Assembly: GCA_943356775.1 (NCBI GenBank) | Contig: CALRFU010000002.1 | Coordinates: 1 to 46,523 of the forward strand | DNA from: Candidatus Nomurabacteria bacterium | GTDB taxonomy: Bacteria; Patescibacteriota; Minisyncoccia; Phycocordibacterales; UBA2100 | Reading direction: 5' to 3' | DNA length: 46,523 bases | Shown here: in pieces, positions 18,116 through 23,384 of the stretch | How the letters are laid out: the number at the start of each line of letters is the position of its first letter | Position numbering within the stretch: the first letter of the stretch is position 1 | Translations under genes and position numbers: made by a program | Notes under the pieces: generated by a model | The model's database searches: none | Told to the model about the DNA's origin: nothing | What the model saw: the letters and a program-made list of their open reading frames with translations, nothing else

Positions 18116-18844
18116 GTGAAAACTGATACGAACGTGGTCCCATCGGGAACCGGTACCGAAACGCGTCCACTCACCCCCCCGACAGCCGAGGAAGCCTTCG
18201 CGGAGGCGTGGCAAGGTCTCGAGAGGCTAGACCAAAGCTTGACACCGGAACGGAAATTCCGCGTCGTCCTCTTTGGGAGTGCTCGCGTGCCCGAAGATGA
18301 CCCGGTCTATGGCGACTGCTACCAACTCGGCAAGGCCATCGGCCAACATCGGATCGGCGGCGTTACGGGAGGAGGCCCCAGCCTCATGACTGCATTCAAC
18401 AAAGGCATCGTCGAAGGGTGGGCTGGGCAACCGGAGGCCTACAGTCACGGCGTCTGCATCAAGCAGATCAATCGCGATGAAGCTCCGAATGTTTTCCTCC
18501 GGCAGGCCTATTACCATCGCCTGATTCTCACGAGACTGCACCAATTCGTGAGGCTCGGGCACTGGGGAGCAATCATTCTGGCTGAGAAAGGTGGGTATGG
18601 CAGTGACCTCGAAAAGGCGCTGATACACCAGCTCCTTCAATTTAGACAGATGGACGTTCCGCTGATCGCCATCGGTCCGATGTGGAAAGCACGCAAAGCA
18701 TGGGAAAAAGCCTGGATTATCGACCAAAACTTGGCCGAACCCCACGATCTCGACTACATGCAGTGCGTTCCCAAAGCGATGGACGCGCTGCCAATCATTC
18801 TTGAAGCGCATGCGCGCTACAAGGCAAAGAAGGCCGCGGGTTGA
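18116..18844 (+). CDS. LOG family nucleotide monophosphate nucleosidase-like protein
   Basis: VVLFGSAR, TGGGPSLM.A.N.G, GGYGS..E (variant of PGGxGTxxE). Confidence 0.8.
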   Translation: MKTDTNVVPSGTGTETRPLTPPTAEEAFAEAWQGLERLDQSLTPERKFRVVLFGSARVPEDDPVYGDCYQLGKAIGQHRIGGVTGGGPSLMTAFNKGIVEGWAGQPEAYSHGVCIKQINRDEAPNVFLRQAYYHRLILTRLHQFVRLGHWGAIILAEKGGYGSDLEKALIHQLLQFRQMDVPLIAIGPMWKARKAWEKAWIIDQNLAEPHDLDYMQCVPKAMDALPIILEAHARYKAKKAAG

Positions 18845-18863: not shown

Positions 18864-18904
18864 GGAACCCTCTGCTGCGGTGCGGCAGGGGGGTCCATCT
18901 TTTT
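18864..18904 (+). terminator. Terminator of the LOG gene
   Basis: ACCCTCTGCTGC-GGT-GCGGCAGGGGGGT stem then T-tract. Confidence 0.6.
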
Positions 18905-19406
18905 ATACCCGCTCCAAATCAACCCACGAATATTTCAATCCGTTCCATTCGCGCTTTTCTTCAAATACTTTTTTTGTGAAGGTATCGGCGTACGGCGGGA
19001 AAAAAGAATCCGCTTCTTTTTCGTTGTCGATGAGCGTGATGTAGAGTTTTTCGATATACGGGAGCGCTTGCTTGTAGATTTGCGCGCCGCCGCCGATGTA
19101 TACCTCTTGGTCGTCGAATTCTCTCCCCTTCGCAATCGCCTCTTCAAGCGAAGAAGCGACAACGACGCCCTCGTAACTCCACTCCGCATCACGGGTGACC
19201 ACGATGTTGGTACGTCCTGCGAGGGGCTTACCGTGGGTGTAGCCGAGAATAGATTCAAATGTCTTGCGCCCCATGATGATGGGGTGTCCGAGCGTTAATT
19301 CTTTGAAGCGCTTGAGGTCATCGGGAATATACCAGAGAAGCTTCTCGCCATATCCTAGCTCTCGATTCTTCCCGATAGCGACCACCGCGCAGATACGGCC
19401 CGCCAT
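18903..19406 (-). CDS. folA: Dihydrofolate reductase
   Basis: LLWYIPDDLKRFKELT.GHPIIMGRKTFESI, PLAGRTNIVVTR, IGGGAQIY, ADSFFP. Confidence 0.97.
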   Translation of the reverse strand: MAGRICAVVAIGKNRELGYGEKLLWYIPDDLKRFKELTLGHPIIMGRKTFESILGYTHGKPLAGRTNIVVTRDAEWSYEGVVVASSLEEAIAKGREFDDQEVYIGGGAQIYKQALPYIEKLYITLIDNEKEADSFFPPYADTFTKKVFEEKREWNGLKYSWVDLERV

Positions 19407-19407
19407 A

Positions 19408-20043
19408 TTATTCAAGTGCCGAGAAATCCTTTTTCAATTTTTTGAGGTCGCCATTAAATACGAGTTTCATCTCGGCCGCCCTCTCTTTCTTACCCTTCTC
19501 CACTACATCCTTCTGATGCCAGCGGGATTTACGTGGTTCGACTTTATGTTTGAGCTCTTCGAAGACAATCTGACAGAAGCGTTCGCCGGGATGGAGTTGG
19601 ATGGTTTGCGAGTTCGTGTTGTTGCGGATAGGAAGTGTGAGCGGTCCTTCGTAGCCGGAATCGATGATACCCGTGAGGTCAACAGAAAGTCCTTTGCGAT
19701 TGACGGATGAACGCGGATATAAAACGGCCATTAAATCATTCGGTACTTTGATTGTTTCGAATGTAGAGACGAGCACATATTCTTGCGGCAAAAGCTCGAA
19801 GCACTGACCTTGTTCGAGCTCGATGACATCAAAGTATTCGGGCCCATGATCTTTTAGAGGGTCGAGACTGAGGGCCTGTCTCCCCTTCGATGTCATCTTC
19901 CAGGCCTTTGGAATAAGAAAGGTGAACCCGAGGCGAAGGTCGACCGCATGCATCTGTAATTGAAATTTGTCGAGTCCCGGGTTGAACTCAATATTGCCGG
20001 ATTTAACCCGCTCAAGAATCTCGTCTTTGGTGAGGATTGCCAT
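19408..20043 (-). CDS. dcd: Dcd/dUTPase trimeric-fold protein lacking the deaminase Glu (candidate dCTP pyrophosphatase)
   Basis: VDLRLG, PRSSVNRKGL, GIIDSGYEG, GERFCQ; LTLPIRN in place of ITLExxN. Confidence 0.85.
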   Translation of the reverse strand: MAILTKDEILERVKSGNIEFNPGLDKFQLQMHAVDLRLGFTFLIPKAWKMTSKGRQALSLDPLKDHGPEYFDVIELEQGQCFELLPQEYVLVSTFETIKVPNDLMAVLYPRSSVNRKGLSVDLTGIIDSGYEGPLTLPIRNNTNSQTIQLHPGERFCQIVFEELKHKVEPRKSRWHQKDVVEKGKKERAAEMKLVFNGDLKKLKKDFSALE

Positions 20044-20055
20044 AGGTCGTACAGT

Positions 20056-20892
20056 CTACAACACGATTTGCATCCCCGTAATGGCAGGCGACGGATTGTA
20101 TTGGGCCGCGATAGGCGCGACTATTTCATCCACCAATTTCCTGTCTTTCTTCTCTGAGCGGTCAAAAACATTTTTCGGGAGGACCACATGAATTGGCTTG
20201 TGATCATTGGTTCGCTTCACCATCTCACGCGCGACATCGTACTGATTGTCCCAAACATGCGCATTGGATATTGAATGTGAATACACGCCGGACTCGACAC
20301 CGAGCTTCTGCGCCAAGATTATTTGCAAGAGAGCGAATCCGGCGACGTCTGACGGGAATCCCAAGACCATGTCATTAGAGCGCACCATGTTGTGAAGATG
20401 TAATTTACCTCCGATGATGTTGACGGTAAATGTATACGGGCACGGCACATTCGCTTTCTTCGTACCGCCGAGTCCATCCCCCGCCGGATCCCACGTGACG
20501 ACGACGCCATGACGTGAGCTTGGATCTTCTTTCAAAAGCTTCACGAGAAGTCCGAGTTGGTCGCGCCCAAAGTGTTTGCGCCACCGGTAGCCGTAGGCGA
20601 CCGTTACGACTCCGCCGGGGTTTGTGAAGCTGTCCCAGATTTTTGTGTAGTCACCCAAGAAATCGGCGGGCTTGCGAAGACCTGCAATAAACCAGACTTG
20701 CTCCGCGACAAACATCTTGACGGGGATTTTGCGGAGCGTCAGCAACGGAAAACCATCCTTACCCACGTCGTGGGAGAAATGGAGTCCCGGCACAGCTATG
20801 GTTGCGTGTCCGTTGCGCTCACTCTTTTGCTCTATCCCCTCACTGAGAATTCGCTTCAGCAAGCCTTGATACATTTCGTCGAAGCGGGTCAT
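20056..20892 (-). CDS. thyA: Thymidylate synthase (ThyA) family protein with Asn->Asp specificity substitution (candidate dCMP C5-methyltransferase)
   Basis: GFPLLT.RK, AYGYRWR, DQL, PSSR, catalytic PC, RSNDMVLGFPSDVAGF, NAHVW. Confidence 0.9.
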   Translation of the reverse strand: MTRFDEMYQGLLKRILSEGIEQKSERNGHATIAVPGLHFSHDVGKDGFPLLTLRKIPVKMFVAEQVWFIAGLRKPADFLGDYTKIWDSFTNPGGVVTVAYGYRWRKHFGRDQLGLLVKLLKEDPSSRHGVVVTWDPAGDGLGGTKKANVPCPYTFTVNIIGGKLHLHNMVRSNDMVLGFPSDVAGFALLQIILAQKLGVESGVYSHSISNAHVWDNQYDVAREMVKRTNDHKPIHVVLPKNVFDRSEKKDRKLVDEIVAPIAAQYNPSPAITGMQIVL

Positions 20893-20946
20893 TCGGGCAT
20901 TGTACGCCACGAACTTAGCACCGCAAATTGTGCTAAAGTTGCGTTC

Positions 20947-21444
20947 ATGTCGGATATTACCTATCCCTATCTCCCCTCCGGTCGCACGATTCTATACGTT
21001 CCTGAGAGCGATGCGTTTATACAAGAAGCGCGTGCATATGCCAAAGAACATTCGCTGGACGATACCGTTCAAACCGGCTCGGTCATTGTGAAAGACGGCG
21101 AGATTATCGGCCGCGGTGCAAACGGTACCGACTACCATAAAACACACGAATGCGAACGCGTGAAGCGTGGTATTCCAACCGGCCAACACTACGAACTCTG
21201 CGAGGGCTGTCATCCCAATAATCACAGCGAACCGCGTGCAATTGCCGATGCGCTCAAAAATGGCCACAAAACCCTCGGCACCGACCTCTATCTCTGGGGC
21301 CATTGGTGGTGCTGCGAGCCATGCTGGAATGCAATCATCAAAGCCGGCATCGAGAATGTGTACTTACTCAAAGACAGCGAGAAACTTTTCAACAAAGCGC
21401 ACCCCAACAACACCGTCAGCAAGCAATTTGCCGATGTAGAATGA
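20947..21444 (+). CDS. dCMP deaminase family (Zn-dependent CDA fold) protein
   Basis: GSVIVKDGEIIGRG.NG, C.R...IPTG..YELC, HSE, CEPC; start MSDITY. Confidence 0.88.
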   Translation: MSDITYPYLPSGRTILYVPESDAFIQEARAYAKEHSLDDTVQTGSVIVKDGEIIGRGANGTDYHKTHECERVKRGIPTGQHYELCEGCHPNNHSEPRAIADALKNGHKTLGTDLYLWGHWWCCEPCWNAIIKAGIENVYLLKDSEKLFNKAHPNNTVSKQFADVE

Positions 21445-21447
21445 AGT

Positions 21448-22059
21448 ATGCGCGGGAAATTCATCGTTTTTGAAGGCGGCGACGGCTCGGGCAAAACGAC
21501 TATTGTCGAGCGCCTGAAGAAAGAATTCCCTGACTTTATATTCACACAAGACCCCGGCGGCACCACATTCGGCGAGCACGTACGCGCGCTCCTTATGTCA
21601 GAAGATACAAAAAACATCGACGTGCGGGCAGAGCTCCTTCTTTTTCTCGCTTCGCGTGCTCAATTGATTTCTGAAGTAATACGGCCCGCACTTGAGAGCG
21701 GAAAGAATGTGATTTCCAACCGCTTTGCACTCTCCTCTATCGCCTATCAGCTATATGGTCGGGAGCGTCCAGAATTATTGCAGCTCTATAAGTCGGTTTC
21801 CGACGTCCTCCTCGATGGCGTACTGCCAGACGCGACAATTCTTCTCGACGTCAGCCCCGAAGTCGGTATCGCGCGAGTACACTCGCGCCCCGAAGAACCT
21901 ACTCGTTTCGACCTCGAGGCAATCGCCTTTCATGAGCGGGTACGGGATGGCTACAAAAAGCATATCGCCGAGTTCGGAACGCCCTTCATCATCGACGCAA
22001 ACAAGCCGCTTGAAGAGGTGTGGCAAAAAATCCAAGAGGCAGTACAATCGGCGCTATAA
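21448..22059 (+). CDS. tmk: Thymidylate kinase
   Basis: FIVFEGGDGSGKTT, DPGGT, ELLLFLASRAQ, NRFALSSIAYQ, IDAN. Confidence 0.96.
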   Translation: MRGKFIVFEGGDGSGKTTIVERLKKEFPDFIFTQDPGGTTFGEHVRALLMSEDTKNIDVRAELLLFLASRAQLISEVIRPALESGKNVISNRFALSSIAYQLYGRERPELLQLYKSVSDVLLDGVLPDATILLDVSPEVGIARVHSRPEEPTRFDLEAIAFHERVRDGYKKHIAEFGTPFIIDANKPLEEVWQKIQEAVQSAL

Positions 22060-22115
22060 CATTTGTATGATTTAGGTACTTTACATACCCCTTTTATTCC
22101 CCTCACTTCATCACC

Positions 22116-23384
22116 ATGAATGATTACGAGCACATCAAAAAACAAGACCCGGAAATATTCGCCTCCCTTGAGGGCGAAGAGCATCGCGAGGCAGAAGGAC
22201 TGGAATTGATACCGTCAGAAAACTACGTCTCGATGGCGGTGCGCGAGGCCAATGGTTCGTGCCTCACCAACAAATATTCCGAAGGCTATCCTGGCAAGCG
22301 TTACTACGGCGGGCAGACCTACACGGATATGGTAGAAACGCTCGCAATCGAACGTGCGAAGAAACTTTTTAATTGTGGGTACGCCAACGTGCAGACCTTG
22401 GGTGGTGCGAATGCGAATATTGCGATGTACTTCGCGCTTCTGCAACCAGGTGACACCGTGCTCGGTATGGACCTTTCACACGGCGGACATCTTACCCATG
22501 GACACCCAGTCACGTACCTCACCAAGATATTCAACTTCGTACGCTATAAGATGAAGGATCCGAACACAGGAGAAATTGATTACGATGAGATGTTGAGGGT
22601 TGCAAAAGAGAGCAAGCCTAAGATTGTGCTTGCAGGCTTCTCCGCATATCCCCGCGAGCTCAACTATGCAAAATTCGTTGAGATAGCGCGCGAGGTCGGC
22701 GCCTATGCAGTGATGGATATCGCACACATCGCTGGCCTTATCGCAGGCAAGGCGGTCAAGAGCCCTTTTGATTTTGGATTCGACGTGATGACCTCAACCA
22801 CTCACAAGACGCTCCGCGGTCCACGCGGAGGTCTTATCCTCACACGCGATAACGAGGAGATTGCCAAGAAAATAGACAAGATGGTCTTCCCCGGCCTTCA
22901 AGGCGGACCGCATATGAACAACATCGCCGCTAAGGCCGTCGCCTTCGATGAAGCGCTGCAACCCGCATTTCAGACCTACGCCGTGCAAATTCTTAAGAAC
23001 GCAAAAGCTATGGAAAAAATATTCTTGGACAACGGTGTCCGCCTGCTTACCAGCGGGACCAGCAATCACCTGCTCCTTGCCGACGTATTCGGCAGCCTCG
23101 GCATTACCGGCCAAGAGGCGGAGACATTGCTGGACCAAGCGGGAATCACACTCAACAAAAATTCGATTGCGGACGATACGCGCAAACCGATGGACCCATC
23201 CGGTATTCGCTTTGGTACACCCGCGATAACCACGCGCAAATTTACAGAAAAGGAAAGTGCGCAGGTCGCGCAATTGATGGTGGATGTGATGAAAAACAAG
23301 AGCGACGAAAAGAAGCTCGCCGCCATCCGAGAAGAAATCCGTACGCTGTGCAAGAAGTTCCCTATCCCCGAGTCGTTCGTATAA
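22116..23384 (+). CDS. glyA: Serine hydroxymethyltransferase
   Basis: LIPSENY, NKYSEGYPGKRYYGG, GGHLTHG, TTHKTLRGPRGG, FPGLQGGP. Confidence 0.98.
   Translation: MNDYEHIKKQDPEIFASLEGEEHREAEGLELIPSENYVSMAVREANGSCLTNKYSEGYPGKRYYGGQTYTDMVETLAIERAKKLFNCGYANVQTLGGANANIAMYFALLQPGDTVLGMDLSHGGHLTHGHPVTYLTKIFNFVRYKMKDPNTGEIDYDEMLRVAKESKPKIVLAGFSAYPRELNYAKFVEIAREVGAYAVMDIAHIAGLIAGKAVKSPFDFGFDVMTSTTHKTLRGPRGGLILTRDNEEIAKKIDKMVFPGLQGGPHMNNIAAKAVAFDEALQPAFQTYAVQILKNAKAMEKIFLDNGVRLLTSGTSNHLLLADVFGSLGITGQEAETLLDQAGITLNKNSIADDTRKPMDPSGIRFGTPAITTRKFTEKESAQVAQLMVDVMKNKSDEKKLAAIREEIRTLCKKFPIPESFV

Follow-up and report, generated by a model that had tools for sequence, protein, structure and literature searches.

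To our knowledge, the textbook view is that every cell makes thymidylate by methylating dUMP, with either ThyA or ThyX. How, then, is dTMP made in a cell whose only detected ThyA-family enzyme resembles a phage enzyme that methylates dCMP, and whose Dcd-fold protein has a proline in place of the catalytic glutamate of dCTP deaminases? This question is raised by a six-gene cluster (positions 18903-23384) of a Candidatus Nomurabacteria bacterium (assembly GCA_943356775.1). The cluster lies in the window, i.e. the whole stretch of DNA that was analysed (46,523 nucleotides, positions 1 to 46,523 of contig CALRFU010000002.1), on contig 2 of a genome of 811,410 bases in 14 contigs (98% complete, according to marker genes). 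The two variant proteins are designated ThyA* and Dcd* (genes thyA* and dcd*). From comparisons of sequences and gene neighbourhoods, we propose with moderate confidence that the cluster encodes a methylate-first thymidylate route (dCTP -> dCMP -> 5-methyl-dCMP -> dTMP), a cellular version of the module of Xanthomonas phage Xp12, with substrates and products assigned from context. The genes form two divergent groups, folA, dcd* and thyA* being read leftwards and the deaminase gene, tmk and glyA rightwards:

18903-19415, minus strand: folA, dihydrofolate reductase, 170 amino acids (PF00186, DHFR_1, 154 bits)
19408-20043, minus strand: dcd*, Dcd/dUTPase-fold protein, 211 amino acids (PF22769, DCD, 119 bits; PF00692, 59 bits)
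20056-20910, minus strand: thyA*, thymidylate-synthase-fold enzyme, 284 amino acids (PF00303, Thymidylat_synt, 165 bits)
20911-20946, no strand: divergent spacer between thyA* and the deaminase gene (from the gene coordinates)
20947-21444, plus strand: divergent dCMP-deaminase-like zinc deaminase, 165 amino acids (PF00383, 48 bits)
21448-22059, plus strand: tmk, dTMP kinase, 203 amino acids (TIGR00041, 159 bits, cut-off 83)
22116-23384, plus strand: glyA, serine hydroxymethyltransferase, 422 amino acids (PF00464, SHMT, 484 bits)

Gene order, strands and families, as judged by Pfam and NCBIfam scores, agreed with an earlier reading of this DNA (hereafter the original prediction), which had put forward the same route.

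ThyA* was aligned with E. coli K-12 ThyA using MAFFT. The fold and the catalytic pair of a canonical ThyA are present (C157 and R177, equivalent to C146 and R166 of the E. coli enzyme), and R21, E58, W80, Y94, R126, S167, D169 and H207 (E. coli numbering) are retained as well. Asn177 and His147 are absent: D188 stands at the position of N177, as originally predicted, with 'lgfpsDvagf' opposite 'lgvpfNiasy' of solved thymidylate synthases (to which ThyA* can be aligned along its whole length), and P158 at that of H147. According to passages of an eLife article (PMC8670742), cytosine-modifying homologues are best told apart from ordinary ones by two positions, 177 and 147, and the change N177D in the E. 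coli enzyme, or N229D in that of L. casei, shifts the preference from dUMP to dCMP and yields 5-methyl-dCMP. These engineered enzymes share the Asn to Asp change with ThyA*; they are laboratory mutants, whereas ThyA* belongs to a natural, conserved clade with further active-site changes. The residues bear on a conventional order of steps, in which Dcd* would be a dUTPase, the deaminase an ordinary dCMP deaminase making dUMP, and ThyA* would methylate dUMP despite its Asp. That is the scheme of Gram-positive bacteria and eukaryotes, and we regard it as rather unlikely here, since Asp177 together with a residue other than His at 147 marks cytosine-acting homologues (passages of PMC8670742).

Phage Xp12 provides the closest precedent. 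All of its cytosine is replaced by 5-methylcytosine, its synthase homologue turns dCMP into 5-methyl-dCMP, and in old labelling experiments cytosine label entered both 5-methylcytosine and thymine; 5-methyldeoxycytidine was formed in E. coli by the Xp12 enzyme and by five out of seven Asp-type homologues from metagenomes, and linked phage deaminases were proposed to make thymidine nucleotides from 5-methyldeoxycytidine nucleotides (passages of bioRxiv 10.1101/2024.12.05.627091). ThyA* was compared by tblastn with 50,697 phage records, of which 4,107 matched; Xp12 and Pseudomonas phage PaMx74 came first among the matches listed. The identity between ThyA* and the Xp12 enzyme is 34% (BLASTP, E 8e-54), and the two types have six derived active-site positions in common (L143N, H147P, Q165V/L, N177D, I178V and W83F), so that the signature of Xp12-type dCMP 5-methyltransferases (D177, N143, P147, V/L165, V178, F83) is fully matched. 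At positions 143, 147, 165, 177, 178 and 83, the residues are L, H, Q, N, I and mostly W or Y, respectively, in E. coli ThyA and in the Asn-type enzymes from sister species.

The family was placed in a maximum-likelihood tree of 29 sequences, for which the program gave a long-branch warning. Ten ThyA* sequences (support 95/94) were sister to three Xp12-type sequences (100/100), with 93/95 at the joining node. Both groups stood apart from E. coli ThyA, from two Asn-type phage enzymes and from the twelve other Patescibacteria enzymes in the tree (eleven Asn-type and one Asp-type, L022). That ThyA* groups with the Xp12 dCMP methyltransferase and not with the Asn-type enzymes of its own sister species is a further argument against the conventional order. 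Methylation of dCMP by ThyA* is therefore suggested by family placement and residues together. When viral contigs were scanned for ThyA* relatives, 46 pattern stretches matched and none was confirmed, in a search limited by its patterns.

The Asp-type sequence L022 (G044:C8:25748-26575), from another family of the same order, is a second kind of Asp-type thymidylate-synthase homologue. It carries 'GLPFDFAF', 'SCPCMFQ' and a Glu at the H207 position, and its gene adjoins nusG and rplK. ThyA matches were also obtained in that genome at C8:29201-30052.

An Asp at position 177 is also found in T4 dCMP hydroxymethylase, which occupied a very long branch in the tree. That enzyme lacks the C-terminal tail and gives tetrahydrofolate rather than dihydrofolate (passages of PMC6400193). 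The tail of ThyA* is present and invariant to the last residue (I282, V283, L284) among eight relatives; with the linked folA, it argues for a methylase, whose product would be dihydrofolate, rather than a hydroxymethylase. Judged from its sequence, ThyA* is proposed to be a dCMP 5-methyltransferase.

Which enzyme would supply dCMP? In Dcd*, 'gpltlPirn' stands opposite 'gqitlElf' or 'ghitlElsn' of three solved dCTP deaminases, so that Pro138 occupies the place of the catalytic glutamate, which we take to be E138 in E. coli numbering; this substitution had also been correctly predicted. Dcd* has the Dcd fold and passes the dCTP deaminase model (TIGR02274, dCTP_deam, 114 bits, cut-off 92.8), and ThyA* passes the thymidylate synthase model (TIGR03284, 118 bits, cut-off 108). 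The remark that automated annotation would see an ordinary operon was thus fair, and two of the three enzymes would be mislabelled, as 'dCTP deaminase' and 'thymidylate synthase', if the methylate-first proposal holds. The features of a trimeric dUTPase are also present in Dcd*, namely the PF00692 match (59 bits, cut-off 22) and the RSS..R and IDSGY motifs, and among its relatives D128 is found in 72 of 72 sequences and Y131 in 71 (one Trp). This match to dUTPase models and the IDSGY motif are what the conventional order would call for, and a Dcd that had lost its deaminase function would need a dCMP deaminase in that scheme too. Base recognition in the dUTPase fold is by backbone atoms, and for this reason the sequence does not decide between hydrolysis of dUTP and of dCTP.

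By its position and by analogy, Dcd* is proposed to be a dCTP (and dUTP) pyrophosphatase. Hydrolysis of dCTP is suggested by the loss of the deaminase glutamate with retention of the hydrolysis motifs; by the place of the gene beside thyA*, an arrangement that parallels the pairing of Glu-Dcd with Asn-ThyA in sister species as well as that of pyrophosphatase with methylase in the phages; and by the genome, in which no MazG, PRA-PH or other dUTPase-fold gene was found.

The deaminase has intact zinc ligands (H93-S-E95 and C123-E-P-C126), in agreement with the HxE and CxxC motifs originally noted. It has the CDA fold and both motifs of ComEB/DCTD-type enzymes and scores below the ComEB equivalog threshold (TIGR02571, 31.5 bits, cut-off 219). 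Its best solved relatives are deoxycytidylate deaminases (E 2e-4), and it has a Cys/His-rich insert like that of the Streptococcus-type deoxycytidylate deaminase, to which its alignment is weak (E 2e-4). When 1.84 billion representative proteins were scanned in full with HMMER, 636 relatives were obtained (195 at E of 1e-10 or lower), and ten long ones were analysed with Pfam. Among these were fusions of the deaminase to Tmk, to a T4-type dNMP kinase, to dihydrofolate reductase (DHFR-deaminase) and to a HAD domain; in another fusion, a Dcd-fold domain of the Pro type ('LTIPVFN') is joined to the deaminase. These fusions tie the family to deoxypyrimidine metabolism, and particularly to Tmk, DHFR and the Pro-type Dcd. 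The cluster deaminase is proposed, from this context, to be a 5-methyl-dCMP deaminase giving dTMP: no other route to dTMP was found in the genome, the gene is linked to tmk, and the deaminase-Tmk fusion exists.

The remainder of the genome was searched for other enzymes of this metabolism. PF00303 gave one match (ThyA*), the dUTPase and DCD families one (Dcd*), and PF00383 two, i.e. the cluster deaminase and RibD, which adjoins RibBA. No match was obtained for ThyX, thymidine kinase, MazG, PRA-PH or C5 DNA methyltransferase, and none above the cut-off for cytidylate kinase (Cmk), for which a single weak hit was rejected as being MiaA. The cluster is thus apparently the only route to dTMP that was found in this organism, and Dcd* is the only candidate dUTPase among the families searched. 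The expected absence of canonical thyA, thyX and dut was accordingly borne out, ThyA* and Dcd* apart; a gene of the UDG superfamily is present.

A class II ribonucleotide reductase of 787 amino acids is encoded on the minus strand of contig 2 (49878-52241), 3.4 kb past the end of the window. An initial result of no reductase in the genome was rejected: the family searches had missed the gene, which was found by way of long open reading frames and Pfam. The protein has an ATP cone, an RNR alpha domain and the B12-reductase (RNR-II) insertion domain, with a weak barrel match (28.9 bits), and its presence indicates that the cell can make deoxynucleotides. Many members of the genus have the same weak match of about 790 amino acids instead of the typical enzyme of about 900.

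Ribonucleotide reductases also reduce uridine nucleotides. With the retained UDG-family gene, this means that dUTP is probably formed and that Dcd* probably removes it, so the claim that dUMP and dUTP need never form is not supported; 'dUMP-independent for thymidylate' is defensible. The same considerations favour a metabolic grid in which both orders run side by side, with ThyA* acting on dCMP and dUMP, the deaminase on dCMP and 5-methyl-dCMP, and Dcd* on dCTP and dUTP: if Dcd* is the only candidate found for disposing of dUTP made by the reductase, the resulting dUMP must go somewhere, and dCMP deaminases are known to accept 5-substituted dCMP. The invariance of the Asp in ThyA* suggests selection for a cytosine substrate, and we consider such a grid unlikely.

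In the methylate-first route that we prefer, the class II reductase would supply dCTP or dCDP, and Dcd* would split dCTP, and probably dUTP too, into the monophosphate and pyrophosphate. ThyA* would then methylate dCMP at C5 with methylene-tetrahydrofolate, giving 5-methyl-dCMP and dihydrofolate; the zinc deaminase would convert 5-methyl-dCMP into dTMP, and Tmk would phosphorylate the latter. FolA and GlyA would regenerate the folate, GlyA giving methylene-tetrahydrofolate. As no Cmk was found, neither dCMP nor 5-methyl-dCMP would be rephosphorylated to the triphosphate; the branch would be one-way and 5-methylcytosine would be kept out of DNA.

Does the variation among related genomes fit this route? 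Within the genus (116 species genomes), Dcd* was found at an identity of at least 76% in 37 genomes, all of which match the cluster deaminase, 36 strongly and one (G121) at 4.7e-17; no deaminase match was obtained in 76 of the 116. Wherever the fetched loci covered the genes, an Asp-type ThyA* adjoined a Dcd* with Pro. The other species of the genus have an Asn/His ThyA, and none of 12 ThyA* genomes in a first sample had a second, Asn-type ThyA. For contrast, 18 related loci without ThyA* were taken (17 with Asn-ThyA and one with another Asp-type homologue); the adjacent Dcd had its Glu in 12 of the 12 that were fully covered, and tmk and glyA continued in the same order in several of the Asn-type loci, with an orthologous tmk. 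Two alternative sets, Glu-Dcd with Asn-ThyA and Pro-Dcd with Asp-ThyA and the deaminase, thus replace each other among close relatives.

A wider scan with one genome per species gave 134 ThyA* relatives, and the best 80 loci were analysed. All 80 are from Patescibacteria, the closest named relatives of the cluster being metagenome-assembled genomes labelled Candidatus Kaiserbacteria and other Parcubacteria/Paceibacterota. Asp177 was present in every one of these 80, and position 147 was Pro in 78 and Leu in 2. A dcd* gene was found in 77 (contig ends account for the other three), with Pro in 72 of the 72 alignments covering the site. The deaminase gene was found in 78. Of the two loci without it, one lies at a contig start, and in the other (L114) the usual deaminase place upstream of thyA* is taken by a transposase-like open reading frame of 289 amino acids (139-1005), just beyond which the contig ends. 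Among the 78 deaminases, the ligand H is present in 77 (one Y) and E, C and C in all 78. A folA homologue was in the same locus in 54 of the 80. Such conservation across related loci indicates that the residues of ThyA*, Dcd* and the deaminase are not due to chance.

The order was sampled evenly (401 genomes). ThyA* (all matches at E of 1e-121 or lower) and the deaminase (E of 2e-26 or lower) were found there in the same 40 genomes, with the genes adjacent. These 40 belong to 24 GTDB families and are patchily distributed within them. In 55 other genomes of the sample, the deaminase matches were weak only (E no better than 6e-9) and represent other CDA enzymes. Strong deaminase matches thus occur in this sample only alongside ThyA*, which again speaks against the conventional order. 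In a phylum sample, also of 401 genomes, a ThyA*-like gene (41-66% identity) was present in 19, of which 17 lie outside the class, and 18 loci were examined. Asp177 was again found in 18 of 18, and its invariance in these more distant loci as in the 80 closer ones speaks against methylation of dUMP; position 147 was Pro in 11, Val in 6 and Ile in 1. An adjoining Dcd* was present in 11 (Pro in 10, Ser in 1), and the deaminase was in the fetched stretch in 10 and elsewhere in the genome in 3, with weak matches only in 4 and no match in 1.

A subgroup of the ThyA*-like genes (L196-L201 and L213; families f137 and f187, of other Patescibacteria classes), at 41-50% identity, has Val or Ile at position 147 and Phe or Trp at 165. 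In four of these seven loci, the fetched stretch lacks both Dcd* and the deaminase, and the four genomes give weak deaminase matches only; a fifth locus has the deaminase only. This subgroup may be a functionally different branch.

Several results weigh against the methylate-first proposal. Among relatives that inherit the genes as one linked block, co-occurrence by itself does not fix the order of the steps, and the changes in ThyA* and Dcd*, which had been counted as independent, travel as one such block and are not separate evidence. The survey of the three variants bore out their expected co-occurrence, with irregular cases. ThyX was found in 5 of the 116 genomes of the genus, and only one of these five, the 1.6-Mb bin G074, has the module, in addition to ThyX. 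Genome G028 has a cluster-type deaminase (56% identity) with ThyX and without ThyA*; its deaminase locus (L094, G028:C6:27082-30525) has phage-like neighbours and neither ThyA* nor Dcd*, the only such case in the genus, and its ThyX gene adjoins a dUTPase-like gene on contig 11. To judge from this genome, members of the deaminase family can probably act as simple dCMP deaminases, as both the conventional order and the grid of parallel reactions would have it. In the phylum sample, G782 (99% complete) has an Asp-type ThyA* and a Pro-type Dcd* with no match to the cluster deaminase and only another small PF00383 open reading frame, and in family f137 ThyA*-like genes often have no adjacent Dcd* and the deaminase matches are weak (genomes 74-85% complete).

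The enzymes themselves add to these points. The key node between ThyA* and the Xp12 type (93/95) is below the starred level, in a tree that carries a long-branch warning. Glu variants of the bifunctional M. jannaschii enzyme reportedly kept dUTPase activity and made no dCMP from dCTP, which would argue that Dcd* is only a dUTPase. Nothing in the sequence of the deaminase points to a preference for a 5-methyl substrate. By BLASTP, the protein shows no similarity to its Xp12 counterpart (E 0.012), and its matches in 29 phage records are all weak (best E 8e-8), so that the deaminases of the two modules are not evidently orthologous. The one phage deaminase characterised in bioRxiv 10.1101/2024.12.05.627091 acted on triphosphates only. 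On balance, the methylate-first order of the original prediction is favoured by the comparative evidence (the Xp12-type ThyA*, the sole synthase, the co-occurrence and the contrast with Asn-type loci), with the substrates of Dcd* and the deaminase assigned from context.

How far does the cluster correspond to the phage module? In Xp12, PaMx74 and Rhodobacter phage RcSimone-Hastad, the gene order is NTP pyrophosphohydrolase, synthase homologue, dCMP deaminase and DHFR. The Xp12 and PaMx74 modules resemble the cluster in linking an Asp177/Pro147 synthase homologue to a zinc deaminase, a DHFR and a dNTP pyrophosphatase, and Xp12 also in deriving thymine from cytosine nucleotides by methylation and then deamination, which is proposed here from the genes. 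In contrast to them, the present cluster is chromosomal and cellular, lies among housekeeping genes, is apparently the sole source of thymidylate, includes tmk and glyA, and is accompanied by no sign of cytosine replacement in the DNA. Its pyrophosphatase is a Glu-less Dcd and theirs is of the PRA-PH/MazG kind, and its deaminase is not of the Xp12 type. The pyrophosphohydrolases of these phages have a PRA-PH domain and T4 gp56 has a dUTPase_2 match; they are all-alpha proteins. As a possible homologue of Dcd*, T4 gp56 was rejected because the two are not similar, and the Xp12-type hydrolases are likewise unlike Dcd*. From these comparisons, the functional composition of the two modules is the same, yet their pyrophosphatases are not homologous, and any relationship between their deaminases would be remote.

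This shared composition raises the alternative that the module serves DNA modification, supplying mainly 5-methyl-dCTP (or a 5-hydroxymethyl form) to replace genomic cytosine, with dTMP and dTTP as a side branch formed by deamination. The phages with this set of genes have fully 5-methylcytosine-substituted DNA, and a dCTP-destroying enzyme beside a methylase would fit the exclusion of dCTP. We nevertheless judge this alternative very unlikely: no Cmk-type kinase that could raise 5-methyl-dCMP was found in the genome, and a hydroxymethylase would need neither a linked folA nor a C-terminal tail. The kinase in the cluster is instead a Tmk of the ordinary kind, with orthologues in the Asn-type sister species, and with the deaminase-Tmk fusion it points to dTMP as the product. 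Partial incorporation of 5-methylcytosine is compatible with this evidence. A combined scheme, in which dTMP would be made by way of 5-methyl-dCMP and 5-methyl-dCTP would also be fed into replication, so that cytosine would be largely or partly 5-methylated without a DNA methyltransferase, is again scarcely probable.

Two other known systems were compared with the methylate-first cluster. The canonical route of sister species, from Dcd (or Dcd-dUTPase) through dUMP to ThyA, shares with it the folds, the dcd-thyA adjacency, the continuation into tmk and glyA, and the folate cycle. It differs from the present set, in which Dcd has undergone Glu to Pro and ThyA Asn to Asp and His to Pro, a separate deaminase has been added, and the proposed deamination has moved from before to after methylation. 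T4 likewise feeds an Asp-type synthase homologue that acts on dCMP from a dCTP pyrophosphatase (gp56, gp42 and a dNMP kinase); unlike ThyA*, gp42 hydroxymethylates, has no tail, gives tetrahydrofolate and lies on a separate, very long branch, and gp56 is all-alpha and unlike Dcd*.

The chemistry, from an Asp-type synthase homologue to 5-methyl-dCMP and then deamination, is already known for Xp12 and proposed for 5-methylcytosine phages. A full-text literature search, which covered sources other than subscription journals and supplements, turned up nothing on such a route in cells, on a Dcd without Glu catalysing its first step, or on how widely the route occurs among Patescibacteria. Where thymidylate synthase is mentioned in papers on these bacteria, it is taken for an ordinary ThyA (e.g. 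passages of PMC12455944). If the methylate-first proposal is true, methylation precedes deamination in a third arrangement, used by a sizeable bacterial group that makes up about 10% of the genomes sampled from one Patescibacteria order (40 of 401); the textbook generalisation would have to be qualified, metabolic reconstructions of these organisms would be wrong, and the 5-methylcytosine phage module would be given a setting in cells and a probable link in evolution. A natural experiment on the choice of step order is offered by sister species whose only difference is the module, and the deaminase family may be a source of mononucleotide deaminases selective for 5-methylcytosine.

The cluster is tightly packed. 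folA and dcd* overlap by 8 bp, 12 bp separate the end of thyA* from the start of dcd*, and the deaminase gene ends 3 bp before tmk. thyA* starts at the GTG at 20910 or, alternatively, at the ATG at 20892, and the deaminase gene at the ATG at 20947, not at the overlapping TTG of a long open reading frame at 20557; the divergent spacer is therefore 36 bp (54 bp with the ATG at 20892). Neighbouring genes encode PurL, an ATP-grasp enzyme, a VTT-domain membrane protein, a ROK kinase, a cupin-type glucose-6-phosphate isomerase and a HAD hydrolase (Pfam). As the G+C content is level across the whole window and the neighbours are housekeeping genes, the idea of a prophage or mobile island was set aside. 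Directly downstream of folA and on the opposite strand (18116-18844, plus), an open reading frame of 242 amino acids gave no Pfam match at E of 0.001 or lower.

The segment 18903-23384 was contained, whole or in part, in 20 of 23 listed sequencing runs, from 7 studies of lake, river and freshwater metagenomes (2019-2025), in every case in the form of contigs; no RNA runs were among the matches listed. The recurrence of near-identical sequence across freshwater runs of 7 studies suggests that the organism is a recurrent freshwater inhabitant.

The domain arrangements of three of the long deaminase relatives are of note. In P0052, the deaminase domain lies inside a C-5 cytosine DNA methyltransferase (PF00145, 284 bits), inserted between the N-terminal FxGxG motif and the PCQ motif; a single polypeptide of this kind could both make and deaminate 5-methylcytosine. 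In P0032 and P0058, DHFR or a Pro-type Dcd is followed by the deaminase and then by a C-terminal region, which in P0032 has a weak match resembling nucleoside 2-deoxyribosyltransferase (E 7e-4). This region may be a further nucleotide-processing step that was joined to the module in other lineages.

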